DNA of 64,000 nt from an uncultured bacterium (GCA_902802945.1 CADCOC010000002.1:9853-73852), one strand, 5' to 3'. Positions 36,707 to 58,596 are shown, numbered from the stretch's first letter. Numbers and translations: made by a program. Notes: generated by a model from the letters alone, not told the origin.

Positions 36707-36917
36707 GCGCGAATTGGAATTCGCCGTGTTCTGCATTGAAAACGTCGCTGCAGCTTGTGGAAAGTCGTCAGGCGATGTCTATCGGGCGTTGTCCGGTGAG
36801 GACGGCATCCTTCATCAATACATCGTGCCGAGTTATGATGTTCTTCACACGCAAGGGAAGGACTACATCGTCAACGACATCCGCGAGGTCATGGCGGAGA
36901 GAGGTGTCGTCGTATGA
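36681..36917 (+). CDS. DUF3791 domain protein
   Basis: GTG start after 'ggaggtg'. LEFAVFCIENVAAACGKSSGDVYRALSGEDGILHQYIVPSYDVLHTQGKDYIVNDIREVM is a canonical DUF3791. Confidence 0.7.
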   Translation: MSTTSITNKRELEFAVFCIENVAAACGKSSGDVYRALSGEDGILHQYIVPSYDVLHTQGKDYIVNDIREVMAERGVVV

Positions 36918-37384
36918 TTCTCTACCATGGCGGAGCCGTTGCGATTGCAGCGCCAGATCTCCTACACTCTCGTAGGGCTGTTGACTTTGGCCCTGGATTC
37001 TACGTGACGCCCATATATGATCAAGCGAGAAGGTGGAGCGAAAAACGGAAAAGGCGCTTGGGCGCTGCCGTCGTATCGAAGTATGAGTTTGATGAAGACG
37101 CTGCCGCAAACCTTAAGATTTTGCGGTTCGATTCATATTCCGAGGCATGGCTTGATTTCATCGTAAAATGCCGCGCGATTGAAGATGATTCTGATTGGGA
37201 TGTCGTATCCGGAGGCGTTGCCAATGACAAGGTGTTTGACACGCTTGAAGCATTCTTTGATGGCTTCGCAACGAAAGCTCAGACCATTGACAGGTTGCGG
37301 ATGGAATCGCCAAACATGCAGTATTGCTTTCGAACTCAGGCTGCTTTGGGCATGCTGCATTTCACGGGGAGCGAGCAGATATGA
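36914..37384 (+). CDS. DUF3990 domain protein (second copy)
   Basis: MILYHGGAVAIAAPDLLHSRRAVDFGPGFYVTPIYDQARRWSEKR. It overlaps the upstream gene by 4 nt. Confidence 0.7.
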   Translation: MILYHGGAVAIAAPDLLHSRRAVDFGPGFYVTPIYDQARRWSEKRKRRLGAAVVSKYEFDEDAAANLKILRFDSYSEAWLDFIVKCRAIEDDSDWDVVSGGVANDKVFDTLEAFFDGFATKAQTIDRLRMESPNMQYCFRTQAALGMLHFTGSEQI

Positions 37385-37602
37385 CGGCGAACAAGAACCT
37401 GCTTCGGATGAAATTCGCCCGTGTGATCGAGGCGTATGCCGCCCGCACTGGCTGTTCGCTTGACGAGGCGCTGGATTGCTTCTATCGCTCGCAGACCTAC
37501 GAGTTGATGCGTGATGGCATATCAGACATGCATTGCATGAGCGACGAGTATCTCGTAGATGAATTGATTGATGAAAAAAACTTGAAAGGAACGGGAAAAT
37601 GA
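37381..37602 (+). CDS. DUF3791-like small protein
   Basis: ATGA overlap with the upstream gene. LRMKFARVIEAYAARTGCSLDEALDCFYRSQTYELMRDGISDMHCMSDEYLVDELI follows the DUF3791 pattern. Confidence 0.55.
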   Translation: MTANKNLLRMKFARVIEAYAARTGCSLDEALDCFYRSQTYELMRDGISDMHCMSDEYLVDELIDEKNLKGTGK

Positions 37603-39383
37603 AAAAGGCAATTTTGTTTTTTGCCGCGATGGCGGCAACAATGGCGGCACTCACCGCGCACGCCGATAACTGGACCGATCCCTCAACGGGCATCACGTGG
37701 ACGTACACGGTCAGCAGTGGCAATGCGTCGTTGGGACGTGGGTGGGATTCTCCCGCCGTACCAACCACAACAACTGGCGCATTGACCATCCCATCCACAA
37801 TCAACGGCCATTCCGTGACTAGCATAGGGGAACGTGCGTTCTCTAGTTGCAGTGGGCTTACGAGCGTGATGATACCCGACAGCGTGACGAGCATCGGGCC
37901 TTCTGCGTTCCGCAATTGCAGCGGTCTTACGAACATGACGATACCTGACTCGGTGACGAGCATCGGGGATGGGGCGTTCGATTGTAGTGGATTGACGAAT
38001 GTTACGATACCTGACGGCGTGACGAGCATTGGTAATGAAGCGTTCTTCTATTGCAGCGGTCTTACAAGCGTGACGATACCGGACAGCGTGACGAGCATCG
38101 GGTATCGGGCATTTTCCTACTGTAGCGGGCTTCTGTCTTTTACTGTCGGCGATGGCAATGTAAACTACAAGTCGGTAAACGGCTTGTTGTTGTCTAAGGA
38201 TGACAAGACGCTTATTGCAGGCGTAAATGGCGACGTGATGATACCGGATGGCGTGACGAGTATAGATGATGCGGCGTTTAGCGATCGTAGCGGGCTTACG
38301 AGCGTGACGATACCGAACAGTGTGACAAACATCGGGTATTCTGCGTTCTCCAGCTGCAGCGGTCTTACGAGCGTGACGATACCTGACTGCGTGACGAACA
38401 TCGGTAATGAAGCGTTCAGGGGTTGCAGTGGGCTTAAGAGTGTGAAGATCGGCAACGGCGTTATGAGCATCGGGATTAATGCGTTCTACAATTGCAGCGG
38501 ACTTACGAGCGTGACATTCCTTGGACATCCTCCGCAGGGAGTATCAGATTCCTGCCTGGGTACTTATGCCTGTAGTTTCAAGTGTCCGAGACAATTAGGC
38601 TCTGAATATATCAGTTTATTAGGCAGGTCAAAGTTTTCGGGATTTGTTGAGGACCTGCCATTGACGGTTGTGCAGATTATATCTTCTGGCATTCGCGAAA
38701 ACGATCCGACGGTGATGGATGTGGTATATAAGGTTACGAGCGCAAAACCGACGGTCAAAGTGCGGGCGTTGGCGTTTGAGGATGGCGAGCGGAGTTTTGC
38801 CAAGGTAGTACGTCCGGAAGCATTCGTGAACGACTCCGATGGTAATTCTACGGCGCAGAACATCGGTGATGCGGTTGTGGCCAATGTGCCGCATAAACTT
38901 TCATGGAAAGTGTCGAGCGAATGGGCTACGAGACTTGCAAAGGTGAAGTTCGAGGTGCTGGCGTGTGAGGGCGAACCATTGCGTTTGGAGTTGCGCACGA
39001 TTCCCGCATCAGACCAATACGGCAAGATGAAGATTTCTTGGAATGTTATTTCAGACGCCCAATTTTTGGATGCAATGTTTTGGCTGTATGCTGATAAGGA
39101 TAGTGGATTTAAAGTGGAGAATGGAATCATAAAGCGTACATCGGATAATTTCTTGATGTCCTATGATGGGTGCGCTATCTCGACATTTTCTCGTAATTCT
39201 AGGCAGTATGTCAATGGCGTGCGGAATTACTATGATTTTGCATCCGTTCCAGAGTATGTTTTTGCGAAGATGGGGTATTCTTTGCTTTCGGGCGATACGC
39301 TGACCTACGCCAATCAGGAGACCCGCCTTGGCTTGTCGCCGAGTGGCGCACGCCAATATGCCTACAAGATCGTGGAGGAGTAA
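37599..39383 (+). CDS. Secreted BspA-type leucine-rich-repeat (LRR_5) cell-surface protein with a C-terminal domain of unknown function
   Basis: Signal peptide MKKAILFFAAMAATMAALTAHA. There are more than 10 repeats of IPDSVTSIG..AF..CSGLTSV. The start overlaps the stop of the upstream DUF3791 gene (ATGA). GC is low. Confidence 0.8.
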   Translation: MKKAILFFAAMAATMAALTAHADNWTDPSTGITWTYTVSSGNASLGRGWDSPAVPTTTTGALTIPSTINGHSVTSIGERAFSSCSGLTSVMIPDSVTSIGPSAFRNCSGLTNMTIPDSVTSIGDGAFDCSGLTNVTIPDGVTSIGNEAFFYCSGLTSVTIPDSVTSIGYRAFSYCSGLLSFTVGDGNVNYKSVNGLLLSKDDKTLIAGVNGDVMIPDGVTSIDDAAFSDRSGLTSVTIPNSVTNIGYSAFSSCSGLTSVTIPDCVTNIGNEAFRGCSGLKSVKIGNGVMSIGINAFYNCSGLTSVTFLGHPPQGVSDSCLGTYACSFKCPRQLGSEYISLLGRSKFSGFVEDLPLTVVQIISSGIRENDPTVMDVVYKVTSAKPTVKVRALAFEDGERSFAKVVRPEAFVNDSDGNSTAQNIGDAVVANVPHKLSWKVSSEWATRLAKVKFEVLACEGEPLRLELRTIPASDQYGKMKISWNVISDAQFLDAMFWLYADKDSGFKVENGIIKRTSDNFLMSYDGCAISTFSRNSRQYVNGVRNYYDFASVPEYVFAKMGYSLLSGDTLTYANQETRLGLSPSGARQYAYKIVEE

Positions 39384-39386
39384 GGG

Positions 39387-39480
39387 GCCAAAGAGACAAA
39401 AGGGAGGAACGTGACAAAAGAGACGATAGTGATTGGAGGAGCTGAGGCCAAAGAGGCTTGCAGTCGCTTTTGTCTCTTGG
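39387..39480. repeat. Intergenic cluster of 'CAAAGAGAC' 9-mer repeats forming an inverted repeat (CCAAAGAGACAAAAG ... CTTTTGTCTCTTGG)
   Basis: Read directly at 39389-39403 and 39467-39480. Related 9-mers (GAAGCGACT/AAAGGGACT and their reverse complements) recur at 40201-40304, 41661-41745 and 58364-58391. Confidence 0.6.
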
Positions 39481-39492
39481 AGGGTAATGCCC

Positions 39493-40182
39493 ATGGCTGA
39501 GATACCGAAAATCGTGCTGCCTCATGGCGGCTACCGCAATCTCGTGGCCTACAAAAAGAGCGAAATCGTGTATCAGGGCACGGCGCTCTTCTGTCGCCGC
39601 TTTCTGCCGCCGAATGGCGACCGCACCGTTGACCAGATGCCCCAGGCCGCCCGCAGCTGCAAGCAGAACATCGCCGAAGGCTCGGCCGCAAGCGGTACGT
39701 CGAAGGAAACCGAGCTTAAGCTTACCAACGTCGCGCGGGCAACGCTTGACGAACTGCTGGAAGATTACCTTGATTGGCTCAAGTCACACGGCGAAAGCGA
39801 ATGGACCGCTCGCGACGAGCGCAAGATCAAGGCCCGCGACCTCGGCAAGGAGCACGACGACTGGGAGTTCTGGCAGCCGCTCCTTGAATCGCGTCCGGCG
39901 GAGGTTGTCGCCAACCTGATGATCGTGATCATCTACCAGACGCGCTACCTCCTTGATCGCATGATCGCCTTTCAGGAAGCGGATTTCACGAAACACGGCG
40001 GTGTGCGCGAGCGGATGCACGCCGCCCGCACGGTAGCTCGCGGCGATGAATGGGATAAGGCGATCTACTCGCGGCTCGACGGCGCCGCGAACGCCGCAGA
40101 ACTCGCCGAAAGACTGGCCGAGATCAAACGCCAGGCCGAAAAGGCCGCCTGGGGCATTAGGAAGCGGAGGGGTTGGCAATGA
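39493..40182 (+). CDS. Four-helix-bundle protein (TIGR02436, the '23S rRNA intervening sequence protein' / bAvd-like family) with a C-terminal extension
   Basis: PHGGYRNLVAYKKSEIVYQGTALFCRRFLP...DQMPQAARSCKQNIAEGSA is the family signature. RBS 'ggaggg'. Confidence 0.65.
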   Translation: MAEIPKIVLPHGGYRNLVAYKKSEIVYQGTALFCRRFLPPNGDRTVDQMPQAARSCKQNIAEGSAASGTSKETELKLTNVARATLDELLEDYLDWLKSHGESEWTARDERKIKARDLGKEHDDWEFWQPLLESRPAEVVANLMIVIIYQTRYLLDRMIAFQEADFTKHGGVRERMHAARTVARGDEWDKAIYSRLDGAANAAELAERLAEIKRQAEKAAWGIRKRRGWQ

Positions 40183-42914
40183 GAATTAGAAGGGCGGAAG
40201 AAGCGACGGAAGCGACTAAAGGGACTAAAGCGACGGAAGCGACCAAAGCGACTGCTAGGGGCTTTCGCAGGAGTCGCTTGGGTCTCTTGAGTCTCTTTGG
40301 TCTCTTGATTCCCATGGGGCTTTTTGCCGATATCGTGCATGTTTACGAGCGGTCGCTGGCTGGCGGCGTAGCCAGCCAGATGAGCGACCGTACGCTCGAC
40401 ACCGGCAATACCTACTCAACCCAAAGCGCCCCCGCGAAGAGCGGCTACATCTTCACCCACTGGTCGATTTCGGTTGCGCAGCCAATCGATAACCGCGACC
40501 GTTTGGGTCGGGCGAAAGAAGTTACATCATTCACGCTCTACGAGGAAACCACGCTCACGGCCAACTATCTGGCTGAAGGTGAGGATTCCGACAACGACGG
40601 CATCGCCGACGGCTGGGAAATCTATTGGTATGGCGACCTTTCAAAGAATGCTTCGAGCGATACCGACAACGACGGCTTCACCTTCGCTGAGGAACTCGCG
40701 GCGGGTACCGACCCGCTTATGCCCGACGAATCGCTTCCCGGAGGCATCGTTTGGCAGGATGGCGCGCTTGTGCAGTACAATCCCGACAACCTTCAGCCCT
40801 ATACGATTCGCAGCGAGCCGGAAGGCGCGCTCTTCGCGACGGTAAGAGACTATCTGAAGCCGGGGCAGGTGATACCTATACCATATTCAGGGACACAAGG
40901 AACGCAAGGGACAGGTTTTGCATACTGGACGATCGACGGCGTGCGTCAGGCCGATAGGCACGGAAGGGCGCTTGACACGCTTTCGGTGACGATGCCGAAC
41001 ACTGCAATCGAGATTGTTGCCGTCTCCGAGAGCGACGAGGCGAAGCGCAATTCGCTCTACTGGTACGGCACCGCTTCCGTTGCGCAGAACAGCGACACCG
41101 ACAACGACGGCTTCACCTTTGCCGAGGAACTGGCGGCGGGCACCGATCCGCTAATGCCCGACGAATCGCTTCCCGGAGGCATCGTCTGGCAGGATGGCGC
41201 GCTTTTGGAAATGAACCTCCAGCCCTACGAGCAGGTGCTAGGCGCAGTCGTTGGCGGGGCGTATTCGCAGGTGTTTACTTCGCCAGTCGCTGGCAACGCC
41301 GCCACGAGCGCGACCTTCGGCAACGGCGGCGCCGTGTGGCCGGTGGTGGCCGATGTGAATGGCGATGGGCTGTGGGATTTGGTGGTGTGTTGGGAAGGTG
41401 AAGGGGAAGAGACGCAAGGGACTGCACCGCTTACACAATCGCTGACCATTTTCATCAATGTGGGCACCAAGGGCAACCCCGAGTTTGAGGTTGATGTGAG
41501 CGGCGCGCTCGGCGAGCGCGCCCTACCGTGGCTGGCGATGAACTCGCCCGAGAAGCTTGCCGGGCTTTCGCTCGACGTGCCTGCGCCGGGTGATGCGCTT
41601 TCGGCCACCACCAACGGCACCGCGCTTCTGGTGAGCGATAGCGAGGGCCGAATCTGGTATTATAAAGGGACGCAAGCGACAGAAGCGACTGAAGGGACTT
41701 CACCAACATCCCAGTCGCTTGAGTCTCTTGAGTCTCTTTCGTCGCTTTCCTTCACCCTCCAGCACAAGGTGTGGGGGGGCTCACACGCCGGCTTTGCGCA
41801 GGGGCTACGGCTCGCGGCGGTTGACTGGGATGATGATGGCGATCTCGACTGCCTTGCGGGTACCGCCGACGGCAAGCTGATGCTGTTGCGCGATCCGAAG
41901 GTGGGGCGGCCCACGAACCTGAAGGCGCTCGCTGGCGTGGATAACGTGCTGCTCACGTGGGATCCGAACGCGCAGAGCCGCATCAGGGGGTATAGGGTTT
42001 ATCGTGCGGAGGGGGAAGGAACAGCAAGCGTACAACAACAAGGTGGGGAGTCGACTTCGGGGACTGAGGGCTTTACGCGGATTGCGCAGCCGCAGCTGCC
42101 GACTTACCGCGATTTCCCGAACGGCGGTCACGGGGTGACCGCCCTACCGGAATACGCCTACAAGGTATCATCGGTGAGCCGGTTCTACACCGCCGGCAAC
42201 TCGACGCCCACGGAAACGGAATCGCCCGCGACCGAGGCGGTGACGGCGCGGCTGGGCAGCGTGCGCTTCTTCTGGAACGACGCGGCTACGAAGGTGGGCG
42301 AGCAGTTCGAGGTGATGCTTTCAATAGAAAACTCGATGAACTACTCCGTGACTGGCCAGACTGAGGTGGTTGCCTACGATCCAGAGTATTTGACGCCCGT
42401 GAAGGTGGTGAAAACGGGGCTCACGGAGGAGTGTGTGATTGAAGAGACTCACGGGACGAAAGAGACGCAAGGGACAGGGACGGAAGTGACCGGCGAGTGG
42501 CGGATCACGGTGAGTGGCGCGAGCGGGACAGCAAGCGTACAACAGCAAGGTGGGGCGGTCATTTTGCCGGCTGGCGGCGGGAAGTTCCTTTCGCTCGTTT
42601 TTGAAGCGAAGAAGGAGGGCGTGACGACGGTCGGCGGTCGCGGGGCGACCGCCCTGCCGGCGAGCGATGGGGCGTATGCCACGGTGAGCATTGCGGCGCG
42701 CTCGGTGATCGCGCCCTACCAGCTCGGCGACGTGGATGGCGACGGCGATGTGGATGAGGCCGATTTGCGGCTTCTGGCGAAGCTGTATAGTTCGCAGGGG
42801 GGCGCATCTATCGATGACAATCAGCGCAAGGCAGGCGATTTCAACGGAAACGGTAAGCTCGACAATGCTGATTACCAGGCGTTGAGGGCGTTGTTGAAAG
42901 AAAGGGGACTTTGA
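40179..42914 (+). CDS. Large secreted protein with TSP3-like (DTDNDG) repeats, FG-GAP/VCBS repeats, an Fn3 domain, a cohesin-like domain and a C-terminal type-I dockerin
   Basis: Dockerin DVDGDGDVDEADLRLLAKLY...DFNGNGKLDNADYQALRALL. FG-GAP ADVNGDGLWDLVV and VDWDDDGDLDCLAG. Cohesin-like YDPEYLTPVKVVKTGL. The N-terminal signal anchor is encoded through 9-mer tandem repeats. The gene contains R1, R2 and R3 mini-repeats. Confidence 0.7.
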   Translation: MRIRRAEEATEATKGTKATEATKATARGFRRSRLGLLSLFGLLIPMGLFADIVHVYERSLAGGVASQMSDRTLDTGNTYSTQSAPAKSGYIFTHWSISVAQPIDNRDRLGRAKEVTSFTLYEETTLTANYLAEGEDSDNDGIADGWEIYWYGDLSKNASSDTDNDGFTFAEELAAGTDPLMPDESLPGGIVWQDGALVQYNPDNLQPYTIRSEPEGALFATVRDYLKPGQVIPIPYSGTQGTQGTGFAYWTIDGVRQADRHGRALDTLSVTMPNTAIEIVAVSESDEAKRNSLYWYGTASVAQNSDTDNDGFTFAEELAAGTDPLMPDESLPGGIVWQDGALLEMNLQPYEQVLGAVVGGAYSQVFTSPVAGNAATSATFGNGGAVWPVVADVNGDGLWDLVVCWEGEGEETQGTAPLTQSLTIFINVGTKGNPEFEVDVSGALGERALPWLAMNSPEKLAGLSLDVPAPGDALSATTNGTALLVSDSEGRIWYYKGTQATEATEGTSPTSQSLESLESLSSLSFTLQHKVWGGSHAGFAQGLRLAAVDWDDDGDLDCLAGTADGKLMLLRDPKVGRPTNLKALAGVDNVLLTWDPNAQSRIRGYRVYRAEGEGTASVQQQGGESTSGTEGFTRIAQPQLPTYRDFPNGGHGVTALPEYAYKVSSVSRFYTAGNSTPTETESPATEAVTARLGSVRFFWNDAATKVGEQFEVMLSIENSMNYSVTGQTEVVAYDPEYLTPVKVVKTGLTEECVIEETHGTKETQGTGTEVTGEWRITVSGASGTASVQQQGGAVILPAGGGKFLSLVFEAKKEGVTTVGGRGATALPASDGAYATVSIAARSVIAPYQLGDVDGDGDVDEADLRLLAKLYSSQGGASIDDNQRKAGDFNGNGKLDNADYQALRALLKERGL
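42126..42150 (+). repeat. R1 in-frame palindromic mini-repeat (GGTCACGGGGTGACCGCCCTACCGG), encoding GHGVTALP
   Basis: Family consensus is GGYC(R)(S)rGGGc(K)GRCC-GCCCTRCCG. Other copies are at 42636-42660, 42973-42996, 47245-47317 (an inverted pair) and 48799-48823. Confidence 0.75.
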
Positions 42915-42915
42915 T

Positions 42916-44307
42916 ATGGTGAGAGAGATAGAGATGCGGAATACAACAAGCGTACAACAGCAAGTTGGCGGCGGTCGCGGGGCGACCGCCCTACCGTGGT
43001 GGCGTGTTGCGGCGCGCTCGGGGATCGCGCCCTACCGGTGGTGGGTGGCACTTCTGGCGATGGTTGTTGCGCCGGTGGCGTTGGCCTATCAGGTTTCAGT
43101 GGGCACGTATGTGGCGAATGCGGGGCGGCAAATCACCGTGCCGGTTGCGCTGGATTCGGCGGCGGGGCTTTCCTACGCGAGCGCCACGATTACCTACGAT
43201 CCGCAGGTGCTAGTGGTCACGAAGGCCGAGGCGGGGTCGCTCAAGTCGCTGATGGCGGAGGATTTCGTGGCGGTTGATACGAACGGCATGCTGACGGTCT
43301 CGATCTTCGGTTCGACGGACGCGAACGTTGCAAGCGGCTCCGGCTCGATTGCCAACGTCACGTTCGCGGTGCGCGAAGGGACGGCGGGGCTCTACTCCGA
43401 CTTGGCCGTGAGCAGCGTCGAACTCGGCGAGAAGTCGGGTGTGAAGGATGTCACGGCGGGGAATCCGGTTCAGACAGTGAGCGGAATGGTGCGCGTGATG
43501 GGCGAGACCGCCGAGGTGACGCGTCTGGAGAACGCCGAAATCGTCGTTGCCGATACCGCTTTGGGTGCGCTGTCGCTCAGCGCGGGCGATGCGATTCAGG
43601 CGAGCGATGCGCAAACGGCGATTCGGGTGTCCGGCGCGGTGTCGGCATCGGGCGCAATCGCCGTCAAGGCACCGGCGAACGGATGGGCAAGCGGAACCTA
43701 CGCGCTTCTCTCCACGACCACGGCGGGGTTGGCGTTCAGCCTGGAAGGGGTGGACGGCGCGACGTTCTCCACCGAGACGGCGAATGGCGTGACGACGTAC
43801 TACGCGGCGGTTTCCGTTGCTGGCGAGATTCCCGTGACCTGTGCGGCGGAGGTATTGTCCGCCGGGGCGAAGAACCAGATTCGGTCGCTTCTTGCCGGTC
43901 AGTTGTCCGGCGTGACGGAGATTGTCGTGTCGGGTCCGCAGGGGAATGTGGGCTTGATTGCGGACATGGGCATCGCGCCGTCCTGCACGCGCGACGGAAC
44001 GCGTCTGCTGGCAAACTATACGATGCCGGAACTGCGCATCACGCAGTTCGATCCCAAGACGGGGGCGGTGCGCTTCAAGGTGACGCCCGGCGCTGGCAAT
44101 CAGATCGTTTCTGAAATCGCAACGGGGTACATCCACATGTACGGCACGAACAGCCTGAGCGAGAAGATGAAGTACATCTCGCAGGTCGGATTCGACCTCA
44201 CGCCGTATCTCAAGGCCGAAACCAAGGGCGAGGGTACGCTCTACGTTACCCTCGGCACGCATACTTTCCTGAAAGTCAAGATTGAAGCAGAAGTAAAGGA
44301 AGACTGA
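42916..44307 (+). CDS. Cohesin-domain surface protein (N-terminal signal/TM, then a cohesin module)
   Basis: YQVSVGTYVANAGRQITVPVALDSAAGLSYASATITYDPQVLVV...VTFAVREGTAG is cohesin-like. Its first ~40 codons are built from the R3+R1+R2 repeat units. Confidence 0.6.
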   Translation: MVREIEMRNTTSVQQQVGGGRGATALPWWRVAARSGIAPYRWWVALLAMVVAPVALAYQVSVGTYVANAGRQITVPVALDSAAGLSYASATITYDPQVLVVTKAEAGSLKSLMAEDFVAVDTNGMLTVSIFGSTDANVASGSGSIANVTFAVREGTAGLYSDLAVSSVELGEKSGVKDVTAGNPVQTVSGMVRVMGETAEVTRLENAEIVVADTALGALSLSAGDAIQASDAQTAIRVSGAVSASGAIAVKAPANGWASGTYALLSTTTAGLAFSLEGVDGATFSTETANGVTTYYAAVSVAGEIPVTCAAEVLSAGAKNQIRSLLAGQLSGVTEIVVSGPQGNVGLIADMGIAPSCTRDGTRLLANYTMPELRITQFDPKTGAVRFKVTPGAGNQIVSEIATGYIHMYGTNSLSEKMKYISQVGFDLTPYLKAETKGEGTLYVTLGTHTFLKVKIEAEVKED

Positions 44308-46482: not shown

Positions 46483-49428
46483 ATGACAACAGAAAATACA
46501 ATCACGAAAAACAAGTGTGTGAGAAGTGCTCACGGCAGAGCAGCCATCCTGGCATTAGCCTTAGGGGTTGCGTCATGCGTGTTGGCATACGCCCCTGCGC
46601 CGGTCGTGTTCGATACGCCGGCCAAAGACGAGAAAGGCATCATGGTGCTCGGCAACGGCGAGGTGGGCGCGACCGCGTGGCTGGACGCCGCCGGCACGTT
46701 GCACACCGTGCTGCAGAACTCCGATTCGTGGAACGAGGGCGGACGCCATGTGAAGACCGGCGCGATCGACTACGAGACGAAGTCGCCTGTCGACGCGGGC
46801 ACGTACCGTCAGGAGCTTTCGATGGAACGTGGCGAGTTCGAGGCCACGTGGAAGAGCGGCGGAAGGGCGGTGTCGCTGCGGTACCGCATCCAGCAGGGGA
46901 CGGACTCGATCGCCGTGTGCGACGTGAAGGGCGCGCCGGACGTCGAGGCGAAGGTGATCAACTGGCGTCTCTATCCCGGCGGGTCGAAGGAGTTCGGTGT
47001 CGGCGAGTACGAGCTCGGCAACAGGTTCTGCGAGGGCGGTCCTTTTGGGAAGGTGCTGAGCAAGAAGAAGTTCACCATCAGCGCCGACCGTCTTGTGCCG
47101 GGCGGCTGGTGCCACGTGAACCGCAACGAGACGGTTGCCGACCTGATGAAGGTGTATGACTTCTACCAGGCGACGGGCGATCTCGGCAAGCCGGATTTGC
47201 TTTCGGACCGCGCGTTCGGTGGCGTGACGCGAAAGTATTGCGGCGGTCAGAGGGCTGACCGCCCTACCTCTGGTAACATCGGTTCGGTAGGGCGGTCGCC
47301 CCGCGACCGCCGTACCCTCTTCCTTACCGCGATCACGTGCTATCATCCGTGCAAGGACGCGGACGAATGGCTGCGCCGCACGAACGAGATGCTCGACCGC
47401 GACGGCTGGAACATCGACGGCGAGGAGGCGAAGCGCGCGGCGCACATCGCCTGGTGGCGCACGTTCTGGAACCGCAGCCACATCGCGGTCACGCCGTCCG
47501 AAACGGCGAAGAACGCGCCGCCCAAGCCCTACGACTTTCCCACCAACAGCAAGCTGCCGCTCAGCTTCGGCGTGGATTCCAGGGGCGGCAACAAGTTCCT
47601 CGGAACGTTCGCGTCCGCCGAAGTGTCGTTCGACGGGAAGGTTGTGTATTCGGGCGTCCCGAAGGTGGGAGAGGTTATTGCAACGGGCAAGATGCCCGTT
47701 GTCCCAGTTGCGGGCGAGACGCCCGCCACCCCAGCAACGGGCAAGATGCCCGTTGTCCCAGGTTTTCACTTCAGGTGCAAATTCACGACGGATCATCTTG
47801 AGAAGCCGCAGCGGCTTCTCGACAACATGACGCCCGGCGGAAGCGACGGTTTCATCGTCGACGTCTATCTCGGGCGCCCGCGCGCGATTTTCGGTCCGGT
47901 GCAGATGCACCACTCCTCGAAGATCGCGGCAGGACGCGAGACGACACTCGAGGTGAGCGTGTCGAAGTACGGTACGGCGGAGATCGTCGTGAACGGCAAA
48001 AGTGAGAAGAAGGAGCTGGGGCGTCCCGTCATCCCGCTTGCCGACGAGTGCGCGGCGATCACCACGGCCTACGCCGCGCAGCGCTACCTCACCGCGTGCG
48101 CGTCGCGCGGACGCCTCCCGATCCGCTTCAACGGCACGCTCTTCACGATCTCCCACAGGGGCGATCCCGACTACCGCCGCTGGGGCAACGGCTACTGGTG
48201 GCAGAACACGCGCCTGCCGTACTACCCGATGTTCGCCGCCGGCGACATTGACGGCACCGACGCGCTCTTCGACATGTACTTCGGGAAGCTGGAGTTCTTC
48301 AAGAAGCGCACGAAGAAGTATTTCGGACACGACGGCGCGTACTTCCCCGAGTGCATGCAGCCGTGGGGCGACCACTTCATGGGCTGTTACGGTCCGGAAT
48401 GCGAGTGGAAGTACCGCAAGGACAAGCACCAGTACCATCACTGCCACAAGTACGCATGGGTGGGCCAACTGGAACTCTCGCTCATGGCCATCATGCGCTG
48501 GCAGCACACGCGCGACGATGGATGGTTCAAGAAAAATGCGCTGCCGTCCATCCGCGAGTACGTGCGCTACTTCGACGGACACTTCAAGCTGGACGCGAAG
48601 GGCCGCTATCACATGTACCCCGCGCAGGCGATCGAGACGTGGCAGGACTGCACGAACCCGATGACCGAAGTGGCCGGCCTCACCCGCGTCACGGACCTCC
48701 TCCTCGCGATGCCCGACAACGTGGTCTCGGCGGACGACCACGCGTTCTTCGCGAAGATCCGCGCGCGCCTGCCGGAGCTGCCTACGCGCACGCTCGGCGG
48801 CCAGAGGGCTGGCCGCCCTACCGAGTCGGCGATCGTGTTCGCGCCGGCGGAGATATTCAAGCGCCACGGCAACGTCGAGACGCCGGAGCTCTACTGCGTG
48901 TTCCCGTTCCGTCTCAGCTCGTTCGAGAAGCCGAATGCGGAGATCGGCCGACGCACGTACACCGATGGGCGTTTTCATAAGCTCTACTTCGGCTGGGCGC
49001 AGGACGAGTTGAACGCGGCGTACCTCGGCATGGCGGAGGAGGCGCGCGAGCACATCGTCGACCGCGTGTTCAAGAACACGCCCACGCTTGGCCGGACGAT
49101 CGCCTGCAACGAGGAGAACATCGCCGAGCGCGCGTACAGGCCCTCCGAATATCGCTGGCCGGCGTACTGGGGCCCGAACTACAACTGGCGTCCCGACCAG
49201 GACGAGGGCGGCGTGTTCCAGAACACGATCCAGTCGATGCTCCTGCAGTACGAGGGCGACAAAATCTTCCTCCTGCCTGCGTGGCCGAAGGAGTGGAACT
49301 GCGACTTCAAGCTCAACGCCCCCGGTAACACCACCGTCGAGGGCCGCGTGGAGAACGGCGAGCTGAAGGATCTTGTCGTGACGCCCGCCTTCCGCCGCGC
49401 CGACGTGGTCAACGCCGCAGTGCGATAG
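46483..49428 (+). CDS. GH95-like (DUF5703 / alpha-L-fucosidase-family six-hairpin) glycoside hydrolase
   Basis: The N-terminal MVLGNGEVGATAWLDAAGTLHTVLQNSDSWNEGG parallels the GH95 LGNGrlGa...LNedtlW motif. The gene contains R1 copies and an R6 duplicated 27-mer at 47680-47761. Confidence 0.5.
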   Translation: MTTENTITKNKCVRSAHGRAAILALALGVASCVLAYAPAPVVFDTPAKDEKGIMVLGNGEVGATAWLDAAGTLHTVLQNSDSWNEGGRHVKTGAIDYETKSPVDAGTYRQELSMERGEFEATWKSGGRAVSLRYRIQQGTDSIAVCDVKGAPDVEAKVINWRLYPGGSKEFGVGEYELGNRFCEGGPFGKVLSKKKFTISADRLVPGGWCHVNRNETVADLMKVYDFYQATGDLGKPDLLSDRAFGGVTRKYCGGQRADRPTSGNIGSVGRSPRDRRTLFLTAITCYHPCKDADEWLRRTNEMLDRDGWNIDGEEAKRAAHIAWWRTFWNRSHIAVTPSETAKNAPPKPYDFPTNSKLPLSFGVDSRGGNKFLGTFASAEVSFDGKVVYSGVPKVGEVIATGKMPVVPVAGETPATPATGKMPVVPGFHFRCKFTTDHLEKPQRLLDNMTPGGSDGFIVDVYLGRPRAIFGPVQMHHSSKIAAGRETTLEVSVSKYGTAEIVVNGKSEKKELGRPVIPLADECAAITTAYAAQRYLTACASRGRLPIRFNGTLFTISHRGDPDYRRWGNGYWWQNTRLPYYPMFAAGDIDGTDALFDMYFGKLEFFKKRTKKYFGHDGAYFPECMQPWGDHFMGCYGPECEWKYRKDKHQYHHCHKYAWVGQLELSLMAIMRWQHTRDDGWFKKNALPSIREYVRYFDGHFKLDAKGRYHMYPAQAIETWQDCTNPMTEVAGLTRVTDLLLAMPDNVVSADDHAFFAKIRARLPELPTRTLGGQRAGRPTESAIVFAPAEIFKRHGNVETPELYCVFPFRLSSFEKPNAEIGRRTYTDGRFHKLYFGWAQDELNAAYLGMAEEAREHIVDRVFKNTPTLGRTIACNEENIAERAYRPSEYRWPAYWGPNYNWRPDQDEGGVFQNTIQSMLLQYEGDKIFLLPAWPKEWNCDFKLNAPGNTTVEGRVENGELKDLVVTPAFRRADVVNAAVR
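47245..47317 (+). repeat. Composite R1 element: two R1 units in inverted orientation (GGTCAGAGGGCTGACCGCCCTACC ...17 nt... GGTAGGGCGGTCGCCCCGCGACC), in-frame inside the GH95-like gene
   Basis: Read directly. The second half is the exact reverse complement of the 42973-type unit. It encodes GGQRADRPTSGNIGSVGRSPRDRR. Confidence 0.75.
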
Positions 49429-57028: not shown

Positions 57029-58318
57029 ATGAAGATTTCCAGAAGGGCGTTTCTTGGCGGGGCGGGTGGTGCGATTGCGCTGCCGTGGCTCGTGCCCGCG
57101 TCGGCGCTCGGGCGCGATGGCGCTGTTGCGCCGTCCAACCGCATCACCGTGGCAGGCATCGGCCTGGGCGGACGCGGACAGTCCGTCCTGCGCAGCTGGG
57201 TGTTGCCGGGAAAAGACGTGCAGTTCATCGCCATCTGCGACGTGTGGAAGCCGCGCCGCGAAGCCGTGAAGAATATCGTCGATACGTATTACGGCAACCA
57301 CGACTGCAAAACTTACATTGACATGCGCGAGCTGCTGGCGCGTCCCGATATCGATGTGATCCACACCGCGACAGGCGACCGCTGGCACGCGGGCGTTTCC
57401 ATCGCCGCGATGAAGGCGGGCAAGGACGTCTACACCGAGAAGCCCGCTTCCATGACCATCCGCGAAGGGCAGGCCGTGGTGGCGACCGCCGCCAAGTACG
57501 GCCGTGTCTACCAGGCCGGAATGCAGCGCCTGAGCGAACCTAACTTCGTCGTGTGCAACGAGCTCATGCGTCTCGGACGCCTCGGCAAGGTGCATACCGT
57601 GTACGCCCATCTGGCGCCATGGTCAGGCGCTCTCCACCGCGACTGGCTGCCGGCCGAGCCGCTGCCGCCGCGCGACGTCATCGACTGGGATGCGTGGCTC
57701 GGACCGTGTCCGTGGCGCCCCTACAACCACAAGTACCTGCCGAGCGGCTGGCATCGCGACCACGACCTCTACACCGGTCGGATCGGCGAATGGGGTTCGC
57801 ACACCTTCGCGCAGTGCCATGACGCCGTCGGCGCGGAATCGACGTCGCCGGTTTACTATCAGTACGTGAACGGACCCGTGCCGGACGGGCAGCGGATGCG
57901 CTTCGCGAACGGCATCGAGATGGTGTCGGTGCGCAAGGGTTGGCACGGGTCGTGCGGCGTGAGGTACGTGGGCACGGAGGGATGGGTGTCGTGCGCGGAC
58001 GGCTATTCGCGTCCGGAGGCGTCGCGTCCGTCGCTCCTCGCCGACTACGACAAGATCCTCGCCGACTACTGCGTGCGCACGGGCTACACCGGACAGAACC
58101 ACATGCGCCAGTTCTTCAATTCAGTGAGGTCACGCACGAAGACCGTTGCCAATCCCGTGATGATGCACCGCTCCATGACGACGGTCCACTGCGCCAACAT
58201 CGCGCAGTGGCTCGGCCGCGACATGAAGTGGGATCCCGTGAAGGAGCGCTTCATCGGCGACGACGAGGCGAATCGCATGCTCTCCCGCACCCAGCGCGCG
58301 GGTTGGGAGATCGTTTAG
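57029..58318 (+). CDS. Gfo/Idh/MocA-family oxidoreductase with a TAT signal
   Basis: MKISRRAFLGGAGGAIALPWLVPASA is a twin-arginine signal. A Rossmann region ITVAGIGLGGRG follows. Confidence 0.8.
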   Translation: MKISRRAFLGGAGGAIALPWLVPASALGRDGAVAPSNRITVAGIGLGGRGQSVLRSWVLPGKDVQFIAICDVWKPRREAVKNIVDTYYGNHDCKTYIDMRELLARPDIDVIHTATGDRWHAGVSIAAMKAGKDVYTEKPASMTIREGQAVVATAAKYGRVYQAGMQRLSEPNFVVCNELMRLGRLGKVHTVYAHLAPWSGALHRDWLPAEPLPPRDVIDWDAWLGPCPWRPYNHKYLPSGWHRDHDLYTGRIGEWGSHTFAQCHDAVGAESTSPVYYQYVNGPVPDGQRMRFANGIEMVSVRKGWHGSCGVRYVGTEGWVSCADGYSRPEASRPSLLADYDKILADYCVRTGYTGQNHMRQFFNSVRSRTKTVANPVMMHRSMTTVHCANIAQWLGRDMKWDPVKERFIGDDEANRMLSRTQRAGWEIV

Positions 58319-58411
58319 TGATTTGTGGCTAGTGGTTAGTGGTTCGAGATTAAAAAGATCCTTTGTCTTTTGTCTTCTGTCCTCTGTCCTCCAAAAATAA
58401 AAAGGTTAAAA

Positions 58412-58522
58412 ATGAAGAAAGCTTTTTTGATAAGTCTTTGTGTCGCTCTTGTCCTGGTCGCGTCGGCGGCGGAGTTGAAGGAGCCTGTGTTCCGTATGAC
58501 CGAGCCGGAGGAAGAAAACTAA
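58412..58522 (+). pseudogene. 36-codon ORF duplicating the 5' end of the downstream gene: an alternative signal peptide plus the shared mature N-terminus SAAELKEPVFRMTEPE, then a stop
   Basis: MKKAFLISLCVALVLVASAAELKEPVFRMTEPEEEN*. The 49-nt segment 58462-58510 repeats at 58647-58695 with 2 mismatches. Confidence 0.5.
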
Positions 58523-58596
58523 CGAAGCGTACTTGATTCTTTGCGATCTTTGCGTTCTTTGCGGCAAAAAGTTAAACGACAAGAGAGTAGGTAAAA

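Follow-up and report, generated by a model that had tools for sequence, protein, structure and literature searches.

The window, by which we mean the whole 64,000-nt stretch of DNA that was analysed, belongs to a rumen Kiritimatiellae genome and carries a small module built around a four-helix-bundle 'suffix' gene, with an LRR gene on one side and a secreted-protein gene on the other (Table 1). Upstream of the suffix gene lies the hairpin array E1, which stops 12 nt short of the start codon and whose inverted repeat comprises CCAAAGAGACAAAAG (39388-39402) and CTTTTGTCTCTTGG (39467-39480). The stop codon of the gene overlaps the downstream ATG at 40179 (ATGA), and no promoter or terminator signal of its own was seen. 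The downstream gene, which has 246 homologs, carries E2, E2b, E2c, E3, and E4 in frame. E2 is inside its 5' end, with a forward arm of six phased units GAAGCGACN (40200-40253) and the reverse-complement run AGTCGCTTGGGTCTCTTGAGTCTCTTTGGTCTCTTG (40272-40307), and encodes EEATEATKGTKATEATKAT...SRLGLLSLFGLL. The decamer found after E1 has a counterpart, ATTCCCATGG, immediately following E2 at 40308-40317, so that both arrays share one junction, of which the decamer is part.

Table 1. Features of the locus, with positions counted from the first letter of the window
Feature	Position	Strand	Description
E1 intergenic hairpin array	39382-39480	.	~5 degenerate forward units AAGNGACNN, 36-nt loop, 2 reverse units GTCNCTTNN
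Decamer ATGCCCATGG	39487-39496	+	directly after E1
Four-helix-bundle 'suffix' gene, 229 aa	39493-40182	+	TIGR04258 profile match
Secreted host gene, 911 aa	40179-42914	+	TSP3-repeat / FG-GAP / cohesin / dockerin Pfam matches
E2 hairpin array	40192-40307	.	6-7 forward units, 19-nt loop, 4 reverse units
E2b short forward-only copy GGGACACAAGGAACGCAAGGGACAGG	40890-40915	+	encodes GTQGTQGT
E2c in-frame insertion	41400-41447	+	2 forward units, loop, one degenerate reverse unit
E3 in-frame full hairpin	41664-41750	.	4 forward units, 14-nt loop, 4 reverse units
E4 in-frame forward-only array	42442-42490	+	encodes EETHGTKETQGTGTEVT, cohesin-like region

The 9-mer tandem and inverted repeats described in an earlier, sequence-only reading of this DNA were recovered to within 1 nt, with one exception: what it placed at 58364-58391 as a recurrence consists of pyrimidine repeats (TTTGTCT/TCCTCTG) of period 7 and is outside the 9-mer family. 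Its recurrences near 41661-41745 and 42455-42495 correspond to the full hairpin E3 and to E4, respectively, and two small copies, E2b and E2c, were found beyond those first listed. The family has the layout (NN-AAG-N-GAC)n, unique loop, (GTC-N-CTT-NN)n, in which the forward unit AAGNGACNN is followed by its reverse complement, the period is 9, and the core G(N)GAC is universal. With at most one mismatch, the dimer AAGNGACNNAAGNGAC matched at 25 places in the window, where dinucleotide shuffles lead one to expect 0.25 +/- 0.5, and 24 of the 25 matches are inside 39382-42490. The 9-mers are the units of a widespread and apparently undescribed family of hairpin-array repeats.

Folded as RNA, E1, E2, and E3 reached -30.7, -53.7, and -36.8 kcal/mol (z -2.7, -3.9, and -4.1, respectively), and the folds of E2c and E4 were no better than those of shuffles. 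At the spacer positions, complementarity between the arms is weak (45% vs 31% in shuffles), which oriented binding sites fit equally well as a hairpin. No Rfam covariance model matched 39300-42600 at E<=1, nor did any match the arrays at 18 other loci. Over the window, Rfam detected only tRNAs and no rRNA, and the element is located between protein-coding genes, not in 23S helix 25/45. Because its position is not in any rRNA gene, its identity as a 23S rRNA intervening sequence (IVS) was rejected.

The product of the suffix gene scored 67.6 bits against the TIGR04258 profile (4helix_suffix; cut-off 40), and fell below the cut-offs of PF05635 (a weak match, 22.2 vs 33.8) and TIGR02436 (23.8 vs 24). 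The AlphaFold model of the 229-aa protein is all-helical (pLDDT 81.6), and its best fold matches by Foldseek were 2gsc (probability 0.99-1.0) and 2rld, with weak E-values (~0.5). The protein belongs to the PF05635/23S-rRNA-IVS-protein/Avd fold family. It has at least 7934 close homologs, and the homologs at E<=1e-10 form 1563 clusters at 50% identity; the C-terminal extension is specific to rumen Kiritimatiellae. No recognisable catalytic domain is present in the protein, and PF01797 (Y1 transposase) gave no match. Neither a transposase nor a recombinase was found near the element, no integrase domain was found among the genes adjoining it, and neither a reverse transcriptase nor a template/variable repeat pair was noticed in the ~3 kb on either side of the gene. 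Searches of phage and viral collections did not find the suffix gene, and in plasmids it is almost absent.

Comparison with relatives showed that occupancy of this locus by the gene varies. It is missing from the slot in L132, L130, L215, and L214, and L129 and L102 are arranged as in the window. In L132, the LRR gene is followed after 13 nt by an ordinary signal peptide, with neither arrays nor gene; in L130, a Y1_Tnp-like gene fills the slot, without arrays; and in L215, there is no gene and a single unsplit array composed of the left half of E1 and the right half of E2. This last state could equally be the product of a RecA-mediated or a slippage deletion between E1 and E2. Between the filled site of the window and the empty site of L132, the signal-peptide region is replaced, and no target-site duplication was found. 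These comparisons bear on the proposal that the repeats are the terminal repeats of a small mobile unit carrying the four-helix-bundle gene. The mobile unit itself is broadly supported in a modified form, as the gene is absent in relatives and is array-flanked in many phyla, but the flanks E1 and E2 are each a complete hairpin array, not a simple terminal inverted repeat. A MITE or TIR transposon was rejected on the same ground, together with the lack of a target-site duplication and of a transposase. Arrays occur as solitary copies too.

A search for the arrays in other genomes revealed more of them in many phyla: an exact search for the hairpin pattern, in which at least 2 units per arm were demanded, yielded at least 118 array loci. 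The matches listed come from Kiritimatiellia, Victivallales, Verrucomicrobia, Planctomycetota, Parachlamydiaceae, Acidobacteria, delta-proteobacteria, and others, with many copies per single genome. About 4 units per arm are commonest above the search minimum of 2, and the spacer is unique and 12-35 nt long. The pattern is not exclusive, since ~6 matches are AAGCGAC arrays, probably replication-origin iterons, adjoining PrimPol/DUF3987 primase-helicase genes. Among the listed array loci, a 4HB-suffix homolog lies no more than 300 nt away in 21 of the 118 (18%), with arrays on both sides of the gene in about half of these, and many gene loci have an upstream array only. In L077, array and gene are at the edge of a 3.9-kb insertion with unrelated genes.

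The association also holds in the reverse direction. When 69 suffix genes were fetched from an unbiased metagenome sample by protein similarity alone, 46% had a hairpin array, scored as two or more forward plus two or more reverse G(N)GAC cores in the 170 nt upstream. Control windows reached 2.9% and within-gene windows 4%, which makes a 16-fold enrichment over controls; at least 2 reverse units were present upstream of 60 of 90 genes. The distance from the last upstream unit to the start codon is fixed (median 16.5 nt, IQR 13-25). The unit type differs by protein clade (AAGGGAC/AAGGAC, ATGGGAC/ATAGGAC, and xGGGGAC), with other types in L127 (CCGGGAC/CGCGACC) and Prevotella nigrescens (TAGGAA). 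In the genome CAYTFC, the array beside the 4HB gene has solitary counterparts that share 87% identity with it across 127 nt, a span that includes the loop. The loops of E1, E2, and E3 differ from one another, as do those of the Planctomycetota copies, so simple copy-and-paste is not general.

The fixed distance and the co-variation of protein clade and unit type would also be found if the arrays were double-stranded-DNA sites bound by the four-helix protein, autoregulating its own gene with no mobility involved. The units converging on the unique spacer, commonly four or so per arm, and the weak spacer complementarity agree with such operators, and the like architecture beside PrimPol-helicase genes resembles origins. 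The arrangement would then resemble an iteron-type origin or the pair of iteron clusters in plasmid parC, with solitary arrays as extra regulated sites or decayed remains. In a variant, a 5'-UTR hairpin would stabilise or process the mRNA; the full-length RNA fold pairs the outer arm of E1 with that of E2, in the style of an rRNA intervening sequence. However, such a model leaves unexplained why one locus exists with the gene, without it, or as a solo array, and it does not account for the dispersed near-identical copies or the in-frame copies in unrelated ORFs; no promoter-like signal was seen in or near the loops. We consider the operator explanation rather unlikely, and extend the same judgment to its variant; it is compatible with, and not exclusive of, the mobile system that we favour below.

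In eight independent conspecific metagenome contigs (99-100% identical), E1, E2, E2b, E2c, E3, and E4 had the same length, and the only sequence variation was one SNP, in E2. Whole-unit changes appear only at ~5-10% divergence, and the indels are all multiples of 9 nt: L102 has 18 additional nt in E1 and 36 (4 units) in E2, and L129 and L130 have two extra E2c units. Repeat number thus varies between species and not among the eight conspecific contigs. The sequence-only reading had also offered a slippage-prone contingency locus, in which the N-terminal 9-mer tract would vary a surface protein by rapid length change. As in contingency loci, a short tandem repeat occupies the 5' part of a surface-protein gene, here that of a secreted protein, and its unit number varies between related species. 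Nevertheless, the 9-nt unit is divisible by 3, so frame switching is impossible, and, being fixed in the species, the arrays are no phase-variation switch. A contingency simple-sequence locus was rejected on these two grounds, and, with the same arrays found in intergenic DNA and cytoplasmic enzymes of many phyla, we regard it as very improbable.

Changes of unit number in multiples of 9 are likewise in agreement with the arrays being a tolerated mutational by-product, arising locally when GNGAC-like seeds undergo slippage and quasi-palindrome (template-switch) mutation; the four-helix gene would then be a mere insertion favouring hairpin-rich intergenic DNA. Also in line with this are the unique loops of most sites and the other simple repeats (CCAACTA x6, SVQQ, and ATALP) hosted by the same protein loops in relatives. 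A by-product does not account for an identical 7-nt core in distant phyla, an enrichment of arrays at the gene in a fixed position, a unit type that follows the protein clade, or loop-sharing copies in one genome, and this origin seems distinctly doubtful to us.

In surface loops of the downstream protein, E2c, E3, E4, and probably E2b are insertions that contain no stop codon and whose length is a multiple of 3 nt. E2c, which encodes EGEETQGTAPLTQSL in an FG-GAP loop, is missing from 27 of the 35 aligned homologs, L132 included, and 3 more have a short different insert; in L129 and L130 it has 4 forward units. E3, encoding KGTQATEATEGTSPTSQSLESLESLSSLS, is missing in many homologs, whose loop is either minimal or occupied by other repeats (the heptamer CCAACTA x6 in L129), and E4 is not present in most homologs. 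At the module matching E2b, P0004 has a shorter GTQGT, and the alignment has a TSP3-module copy-number gap there. Elsewhere, the orthologous DNA methyltransferases of L051, L077, and L117 have different arrays in the same loop. In an N-terminal alignment, the reverse arm of E2, SRLGLLSLFGLL, coincides with the hydrophobic core of the homologs' signal peptides, and has been co-opted as the corresponding core in the downstream protein.

Forward units in ORFs use one frame, with 139 [KEQ][GAEV]T dimers vs 0 in the second frame. Such single-frame, hydrophilic [KEQ][GA]T repeats, and a reverse arm serving as signal-peptide core, might reflect selection at the protein level only, for T/E/A/K-rich linkers and Leu-rich segments, the palindromy of the DNA being incidental. 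In contrast, reverse arms use two different reading frames, a crude ORF call places E1 and ~80% of the arrays elsewhere outside coding sequence, and the DNA hairpin and core are conserved across phyla regardless of coding status, which makes protein-level selection extremely unlikely as the explanation.

By a narrow balance of probability, we favour a selfish system, REPIN/RAYT-like or cassette-like, whose protein partner is a helical member of the Avd/IVS family and in which the arrays would be the cis-acting partner of the TIGR04258 suffix gene. The canonical module would consist of a hairpin array, ~16 nt holding the ribosome-binding site, and the gene. E1 and E2 may be hybrid arrays, formed when the array belonging to the module recombined with one already resident in the chromosome, and the reverse reaction would leave a single E1-left::E2-right array, as in L215. 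The helical protein, a relative of Avd, probably binds the G(N)GAC repeats in oligomeric form, with (AAGGGACNN)n, as DNA or RNA, as its candidate target. Such binding would conserve the units, array-by-array recombination would move the gene and seed solitary arrays, and the arrays would gain or lose whole 9-nt units over species-level time. We infer this mechanism of mobility from sequence, and the binding, the recombination, and a circular intermediate of the module are all putative. Counted against the selfish system are the small share (18%) of listed pattern arrays that adjoin the gene, the differing loops, the weak arm complementarity, and the many loci with an upstream array only. To these are added the L077 insertion, the non-exclusive AAGCGAC matches, the lack of phage and scarcity of plasmid copies despite an apparent cross-phylum spread, and a protein with no catalytic domain and no recombinase nearby.

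Several known systems can be compared with this module. Like the iteron clusters of plasmid/SaPI-type origins and parC, it has inverted sets of phased repeats around a unique spacer, adjoined by the gene of a presumed binding protein; unlike them, there are no replication or partition genes near the four-helix gene, and the arrays are dispersed and also inside ORFs. An integron gene cassette is a promoterless ORF with an attC hairpin site. The module is similarly a small unit with no promoter signal, comprising an ORF and an imperfect hairpin site, and its site is found occupied, solo, or empty, a pattern that suggests site-by-site recombination. However, no IntI integrase or attI platform was seen beside the element, the hairpin site is upstream of the ORF and not downstream, and, by description, its periodic arrays are set apart from the R/L boxes of attC.

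The intervening sequences of 23S rRNA reportedly contain an S23p/PF05635 ORF, which is bracketed by stem-forming inverted repeats, and Avd, the accessory protein of DGRs, is a nucleic-acid-binding oligomer. The suffix protein has its fold family in common with the IVS ORF product and Avd, although the element is not in rRNA as an IVS is. To our knowledge, 9-nt periodic arrays and a suffix domain are both undescribed for IVSs or DGRs. PF05635 genes are known as insertions within operons, one example lying between cmr3 and cmr2 (PMC3936711).

With REP/REPIN elements and their RAYT gene (Bertels and Rainey 2011, PMC3116915; PMC3337134; Di Nocera 2013, PMC3733652), the arrays share being short hairpin-forming repeats, mainly intergenic and biased to gene 3' ends, that flank one gene and whose sequence co-varies with it across lineages. 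They are dispersed, palindromic, multi-copy in each genome, and mostly extragenic. The flanked gene, however, is TIGR04258, an all-helical PF05635-family protein of ~190-230 aa, and not the Y1 (HUH, IS200-like) tyrosine transposase of RAYTs. The fixed 20-40-nt palindrome of REPs is here a variable-length array of 9-nt units, often with a unique loop, and copies are also found in frame within ORFs. The last feature recalls the Rickettsia palindromic elements (RPEs), which are reportedly palindromic repeats in frame inside protein-coding genes. Each RPE is a 100-150-nt copy derived from a master sequence; no gene is known to accompany these elements, and they are not known outside Rickettsia. 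E2c, E3, E4, and the arrays of the methyltransferase orthologs are, like RPEs, in-frame palindromic insertions that add peptide segments at tolerated surface sites. By description, what sets the present family apart from RPEs is that its arrays are modular, built of 9-mers, present across phyla, and tied to a gene.

The 9-nt tandem and inverted repeats that the sequence-only reading had noticed around the four-helix-bundle gene were present as described. Their forward unit, AAGGGACNN, carries the core GGAC (more generally G(N)GAC), the reverse unit is its reverse complement, and forward units, a loop and reverse units together make up a hairpin array. Besides the pair that brackets the gene (E1 and E2), further copies lie within the big ORF downstream, two of which (E2b and E2c) had not been listed before. 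A two-unit pattern with at most one mismatch was matched 25 times in the window, against 0.25 times in dinucleotide shuffles, and with one exception all the matches fell within 39.38–42.49 kb. E1, E2 and E3 folded much better than shuffles, both as RNA and as DNA. Spacer complementarity between the arms was only slightly above shuffles, and therefore selection for a strict hairpin was rejected and no conserved RNA structure is claimed. No Rfam family matched the arrays of the window or of 18 other loci at the gathering and E-value thresholds, and a promoter and terminator scan of 39200–40500 gave no signal at the arrays.

Repeat copies, genes and neighboring features in the window
Feature	Position	Description
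Four-helix gene	39493–40182 (+)	229-aa four-helix-bundle "suffix" protein
Big ORF	40179–42914 (+)	911-aa frame
E1	39382–39480	5' of the four-helix gene; ~5 degenerate forward units of the form AAGNGACNN; 36-nt loop; 2 reverse units GTCNCTTNN
E2	40192–40307	3' of the four-helix gene; 6 clean and 1 degenerate forward units; 19-nt loop; 4 reverse units
E2b	40890–40915	small copy
E2c	41400–41447	small copy
E3	41664–41750	third full hairpin, built from units of the E1/E2 type
E4	42442–42490	run of forward units only
DUF3990/DUF3791 gene pairs	36914–37602	just upstream of the LRR gene
TSP3-repeat module	40656–41204	435 bp, 2 copies
CAAGCGTACAAC family	42020–42050, 42527–42557, 42940–42965	encodes, with the GGTCRCGGGGYGACCGCCCTRCC family, GTASVQQQGG and G(R/H)G(A/V)TALP
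GGTCRCGGGGYGACCGCCCTRCC family	42126–42148, 42636–42658, 42973–42995	small palindrome GGTCGC-GGG-GCGACC
Repeat-bearing ORF	46483–49428	in-frame repeats at 47247–47320 and 47680–47761
Other short repeats	58315–58344, 58359–58391, 58538–58563	period-7 arrays TTAGTGG (x4) and TTTGTCT/TCCTCTG (x4.7); 9-mer TCTTTGCGA (x3)

The protein encoded between E1 and E2 scored 67.6 bits against TIGR04258 (cut-off 40) and matched PF05635 weakly. Its AlphaFold model is all-helical (pLDDT 81.6), and the closest structures are those of the S23p/IVS proteins 2gsc and 2rld. The stop codon of the gene overlaps the ATG (ATGA) of the big ORF, whose frame includes E2 and continues as a secreted TSP3/FG-GAP/cohesin/dockerin protein. 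The four-helix protein is very conserved, with ~60–70% identity across phyla, and its suffix family comprises at least 7934 close matches (1563 clusters at 50% identity, E ≤ 1e-10). The wider family also holds the nucleic-acid-binding factor Avd of diversity-generating retroelements (DGRs) and ORFs located inside stem-bounded rRNA intervening sequences. Neither the PADLOC defence models nor a PDB sequence search with the protein gave a useful match. No phage record and none of 2.9 million viral contigs carried the gene, and among plasmids it was found on a single Prevotella megaplasmid, so a phage or plasmid vehicle is unsupported.

The association between gene and array was seen from both sides. 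A close homolog of the window's four-helix protein was encoded within 300 nt of an array in 21 of the 118 listed array loci, about half of these 21 having arrays on both sides of it. In the reverse direction, 80 metagenome loci were fetched by protein similarity alone, and 69 had enough upstream sequence; two or more G(N)GAC cores in each orientation were present within 170 nt upstream of 46% of these genes, and the corresponding values were 2.9% for 594 control windows and 4% for windows within the gene. Many of the remaining genes have one-armed arrays, and at least two reverse units were found upstream of 60 of 90 four-helix genes. The last unit precedes the start codon by a median of 16.5 nt (IQR 13–25); the position of the array relative to the start is fixed. 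An operator or iteron, or a hairpin in the 5' UTR, is a live alternative role for arrays so placed, and one compatible with binding by the protein and recombination between arrays.

The sequence of the units also tracks the clade of the protein. The main clade has AAGGGAC, AAAGGAC or CAAGGAC, a second clade ATGGGAC or ATAGGAC, and the low-GC clades xGGGGAC, while the units are CCGGGAC/CGCGACC at the compared locus L127 and TAGGAA in Prevotella nigrescens. Extra arrays were denser near the gene (0.041 vs 0.007 per kb); because each group contained only five arrays, this clustering was left out of the argument.

Further arrays of this type exist well beyond the window. In a scan of one genome per species for the exact pattern of two forward units, a gap of 5–35 nt and two reverse units, we detected at least 118 array loci in many phyla, ~6 of which are AAGCGAC-only arrays of a separate class. 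Among the matches listed are Kiritimatiellia, Victivallales, Verrucomicrobia, Planctomycetota, Parachlamydiaceae, Acidobacteria, delta-proteobacteria, Bacteroidota, Binatia and others, with up to 16 loci from one MAG and up to 17 forward and 12 reverse units per array. In the same listed set, AAGGGAC is the commonest core, two or four units per arm are most frequent, the median loop is 25 nt, and ~80% of the arrays are intergenic by a crude ORF-based classification, the surrounding gene pairs being convergent in 35 cases and divergent in 11. The AAGCGAC-only arrays (L037, L038, L050, L078, L095 and L106, in Planctomycetota, Acidobacteria and Actinobacteria MAGs) consist of three forward and three reverse units with a short loop, directly 3' of PrimPol/PriCT/DUF3987 primase-helicase genes, and are probably iteron-type origins of integrated elements, distinct from the four-helix arrays.

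The window is from a rumen Kiritimatiellae genome. The slot between the LRR gene and the big ORF differs among relatives, and the four-helix gene is variably present there. Two relatives, L129 and L102 (89% and 84% identity to the window in the big ORF), show the same state as the window. In L215 (83%), the LRR gene is followed directly by the big ORF, with one array and no four-helix gene; in L214 (56%), the gene is likewise absent and the solo array is long. L132 (77%) has neither array nor gene, the LRR stop being followed after 13 nt by an ATG and an ordinary signal peptide. L130 (78%), also with an ordinary signal peptide, carries instead a 395-aa gene (L130 3817–5004) with an IS200-like Y1_Tnp domain (27.5 bits) and no surrounding arrays. 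The left part of the single L215 array aligns with E1 and the right part with the loop and reverse arm of E2, the junction lying within ...GGCCAAAGCGACTG... What the window has and L215 lacks is the loop and reverse arm of E1, the RBS, the four-helix gene and the forward arm of E2, which, if circularised, give exactly the canonical module, in which ~12 nt separate a hairpin array from the start codon that follows it. This alignment is the pattern expected if the array of a module recombined with a resident array, and could reflect integration or, in reverse, excision or deletion. The proposal that a small mobile unit carries the four-helix gene is broadly supported, in modified form, by these empty, solo and occupied alleles. 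No target-site duplication was found at the boundaries of the cassette, nor at E2c or E3. The genes within a 3.9-kb insertion at L077, in another rumen Kiritimatiellae genome, are of the Fic/DOC, TSCPD and flavin-reductase types, and the insertion encodes no recombinase. Just 5' of the LRR gene, relatives differ in their gene content; repeated DUF3990/DUF3791 pairs also occur there in L001–L005 and L129–L132, and an AAA_15/AAA_21 ATPase was seen in relatives.

In-frame insertion of repeats, classically known from Rickettsia, was observed in the big ORF. An alignment of 35 homologs showed that E2c, E3 and E4 are insertions confined to particular lineages and placed in loops of conserved domains; some homologs have a two-residue loop in GRIWYY...LQHKVW. 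E2b sits where a difference in TSP3-module copy number breaks the alignment, and in P0004 alone the matching module contains GTQGT, a shorter form. The loops that host arrays carry other repeats in other relatives, such as the heptamer CCAACTA (x6, 42 nt, in frame, encoding TTNYQSPTTNYQ) in place of E3 at L129 6888–6968. Orthologous DNA methyltransferases of L051, L077 and L117, also from rumen Kiritimatiellae, have differing arrays at one loop, and in two of the three the C-terminus extends into the array preceding a four-helix gene. Within ORFs, forward units are read in a single frame, [KEQ][GAEV]T, whose dimer occurred 139 times in 120 homologs, compared with none for the second frame. The reverse arm of E2 encodes SRLGLLSLFGLL, lines up with the hydrophobic core that array-less homologs have in their signal peptides and is kept in L215, L129 and L102; an array arm has therefore been recruited to serve as a signal peptide. 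In the databases, many representatives of the suffix family (P0253, P0264, P0279, P0290, P0335 and others) have N-terminal extensions of 50–90 aa ahead of the conserved start, probably from gene callers reading through stop-free upstream arrays; such arrays lead to wrong annotation of starts and N-termini (P0005 and P0008, set beside the window, are examples). They may also break up assemblies, since many four-helix genes are on contigs of 1–3 kb.

The other role proposed by the sequence-only reading, that of slippage-prone contingency repeats, is contradicted by the stability of the arrays. In eight contigs from independent metagenomes, 99–100% identical to the window and with an identical four-helix protein, E1, E2, E2b, E2c, E3 and E4 were all equal in length (8/8), the sole array difference being a single SNP in E2, carried by two of the contigs. 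Repeat number thus did not vary among conspecific contigs, and differences in whole units appeared at 5–10% divergence. At L102, the syntenic locus of the Kiritimatiellae MAG RGIG1307, E1 is longer by two reverse units and E2 by four forward units, and E2c is two units longer in L129 and L130. Because the period is 9, such changes leave the reading frame intact. Given the equal lengths and the frame-neutral period, these are slowly evolving unit arrays and not a phase-variation switch. Separately, the TSP3 module is present in three copies in the conspecific contigs L001–L003, whose protein has 1050 aa; either the copy number truly differs or the assembly has collapsed.

Hairpin repeats in coding sequence seem common in this genome. 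The CAAGCGTACAAC and GGTCRCGGGGYGACCGCCCTRCC families are in-frame insertions in the same two ORFs and are absent together from many homologs, and another repeat-bearing ORF contains both an inverted pair of the unit GGTCRC...GCCCTACC, a REPIN-like doublet, and three tandem 27-nt units, each a small hairpin CAACGGGCA-AGA-TGCCCGTTG. The stretch at 58364–58391, previously taken for another copy of the 9-mer family, is a different, period-7 repeat; the short repeats of 58315–58563, which precede a neighboring pair of paralogous, small secreted ORFs with ...AAELKEPVFRMTEPE in common, are other sequences and not of the AAGNGAC family.

Some copies within one genome also resemble each other, loop included. 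In the MAG CAYTFC, the solitary arrays L026, L035, L014 and L023 share the loop and the irregular unit spacing with the array at its four-helix gene (87% identity over 127 nt for L026). Loops differ among the copies in the genome of the window and in a Planctomycetota MAG, and copy-and-paste is therefore only part of the story. We infer that the four-helix protein would bind the G(N)GAC repeats in oligomeric form, that this binding would keep the core conserved, and that array-by-array recombination would move the gene, with solitary arrays left behind or seeded. Tentatively, and at somewhat less than even chances, we suggest a selfish system that spans phyla and has so far gone unrecognised, in which a four-helix protein of the Avd/IVS family would recognise hairpin arrays of G(N)GAC units with a 9-nt period and would drive or license their recombination and spread. 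One 9-nt unit would then correspond to each subunit of the oligomer, the gene cassette would enter and leave resident arrays, and solitary arrays would be seeded and subsequently colonise protein-coding genes in frame, making new loops and even signal peptides.

There is a real chance that the arrays and the four-helix gene are a new kind of system. Full-text searches yielded no description of the unit strings, of "four helix bundle suffix" or of TIGR04258/TIGR02436. PF05635 genes have been found inserted within cas operons (PMC3936711), and the PF05635 papers that the searches turned up mention the family incidentally and do not describe the arrays. Sequence-specific binding to a defined repeat would be the first concrete functional hypothesis for the thousands of members of TIGR04258, and touches the wider PF05635 family, including the Avd and rRNA intervening-sequence proteins. 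In gut and rumen bacteria, too, proteins are altered by in-frame insertion of repeats, and one such insertion supplies a signal peptide. The closest analogue of the partnership is REPIN/RAYT (PMC3116915, PMC3337134), in which the partner is a Y1 transposase, whereas the partner gene here is not; the arrays would represent a second, architecturally different repeat-plus-gene partnership, spanning the PVC superphylum, Acidobacteria and delta-proteobacteria. The in-frame copies resemble the Rickettsia palindromic elements, the unit of ORF plus hairpin with solo sites recalls integron cassettes, and the gene family with its bracketing stem recalls the intervening sequences of 23S rRNA.
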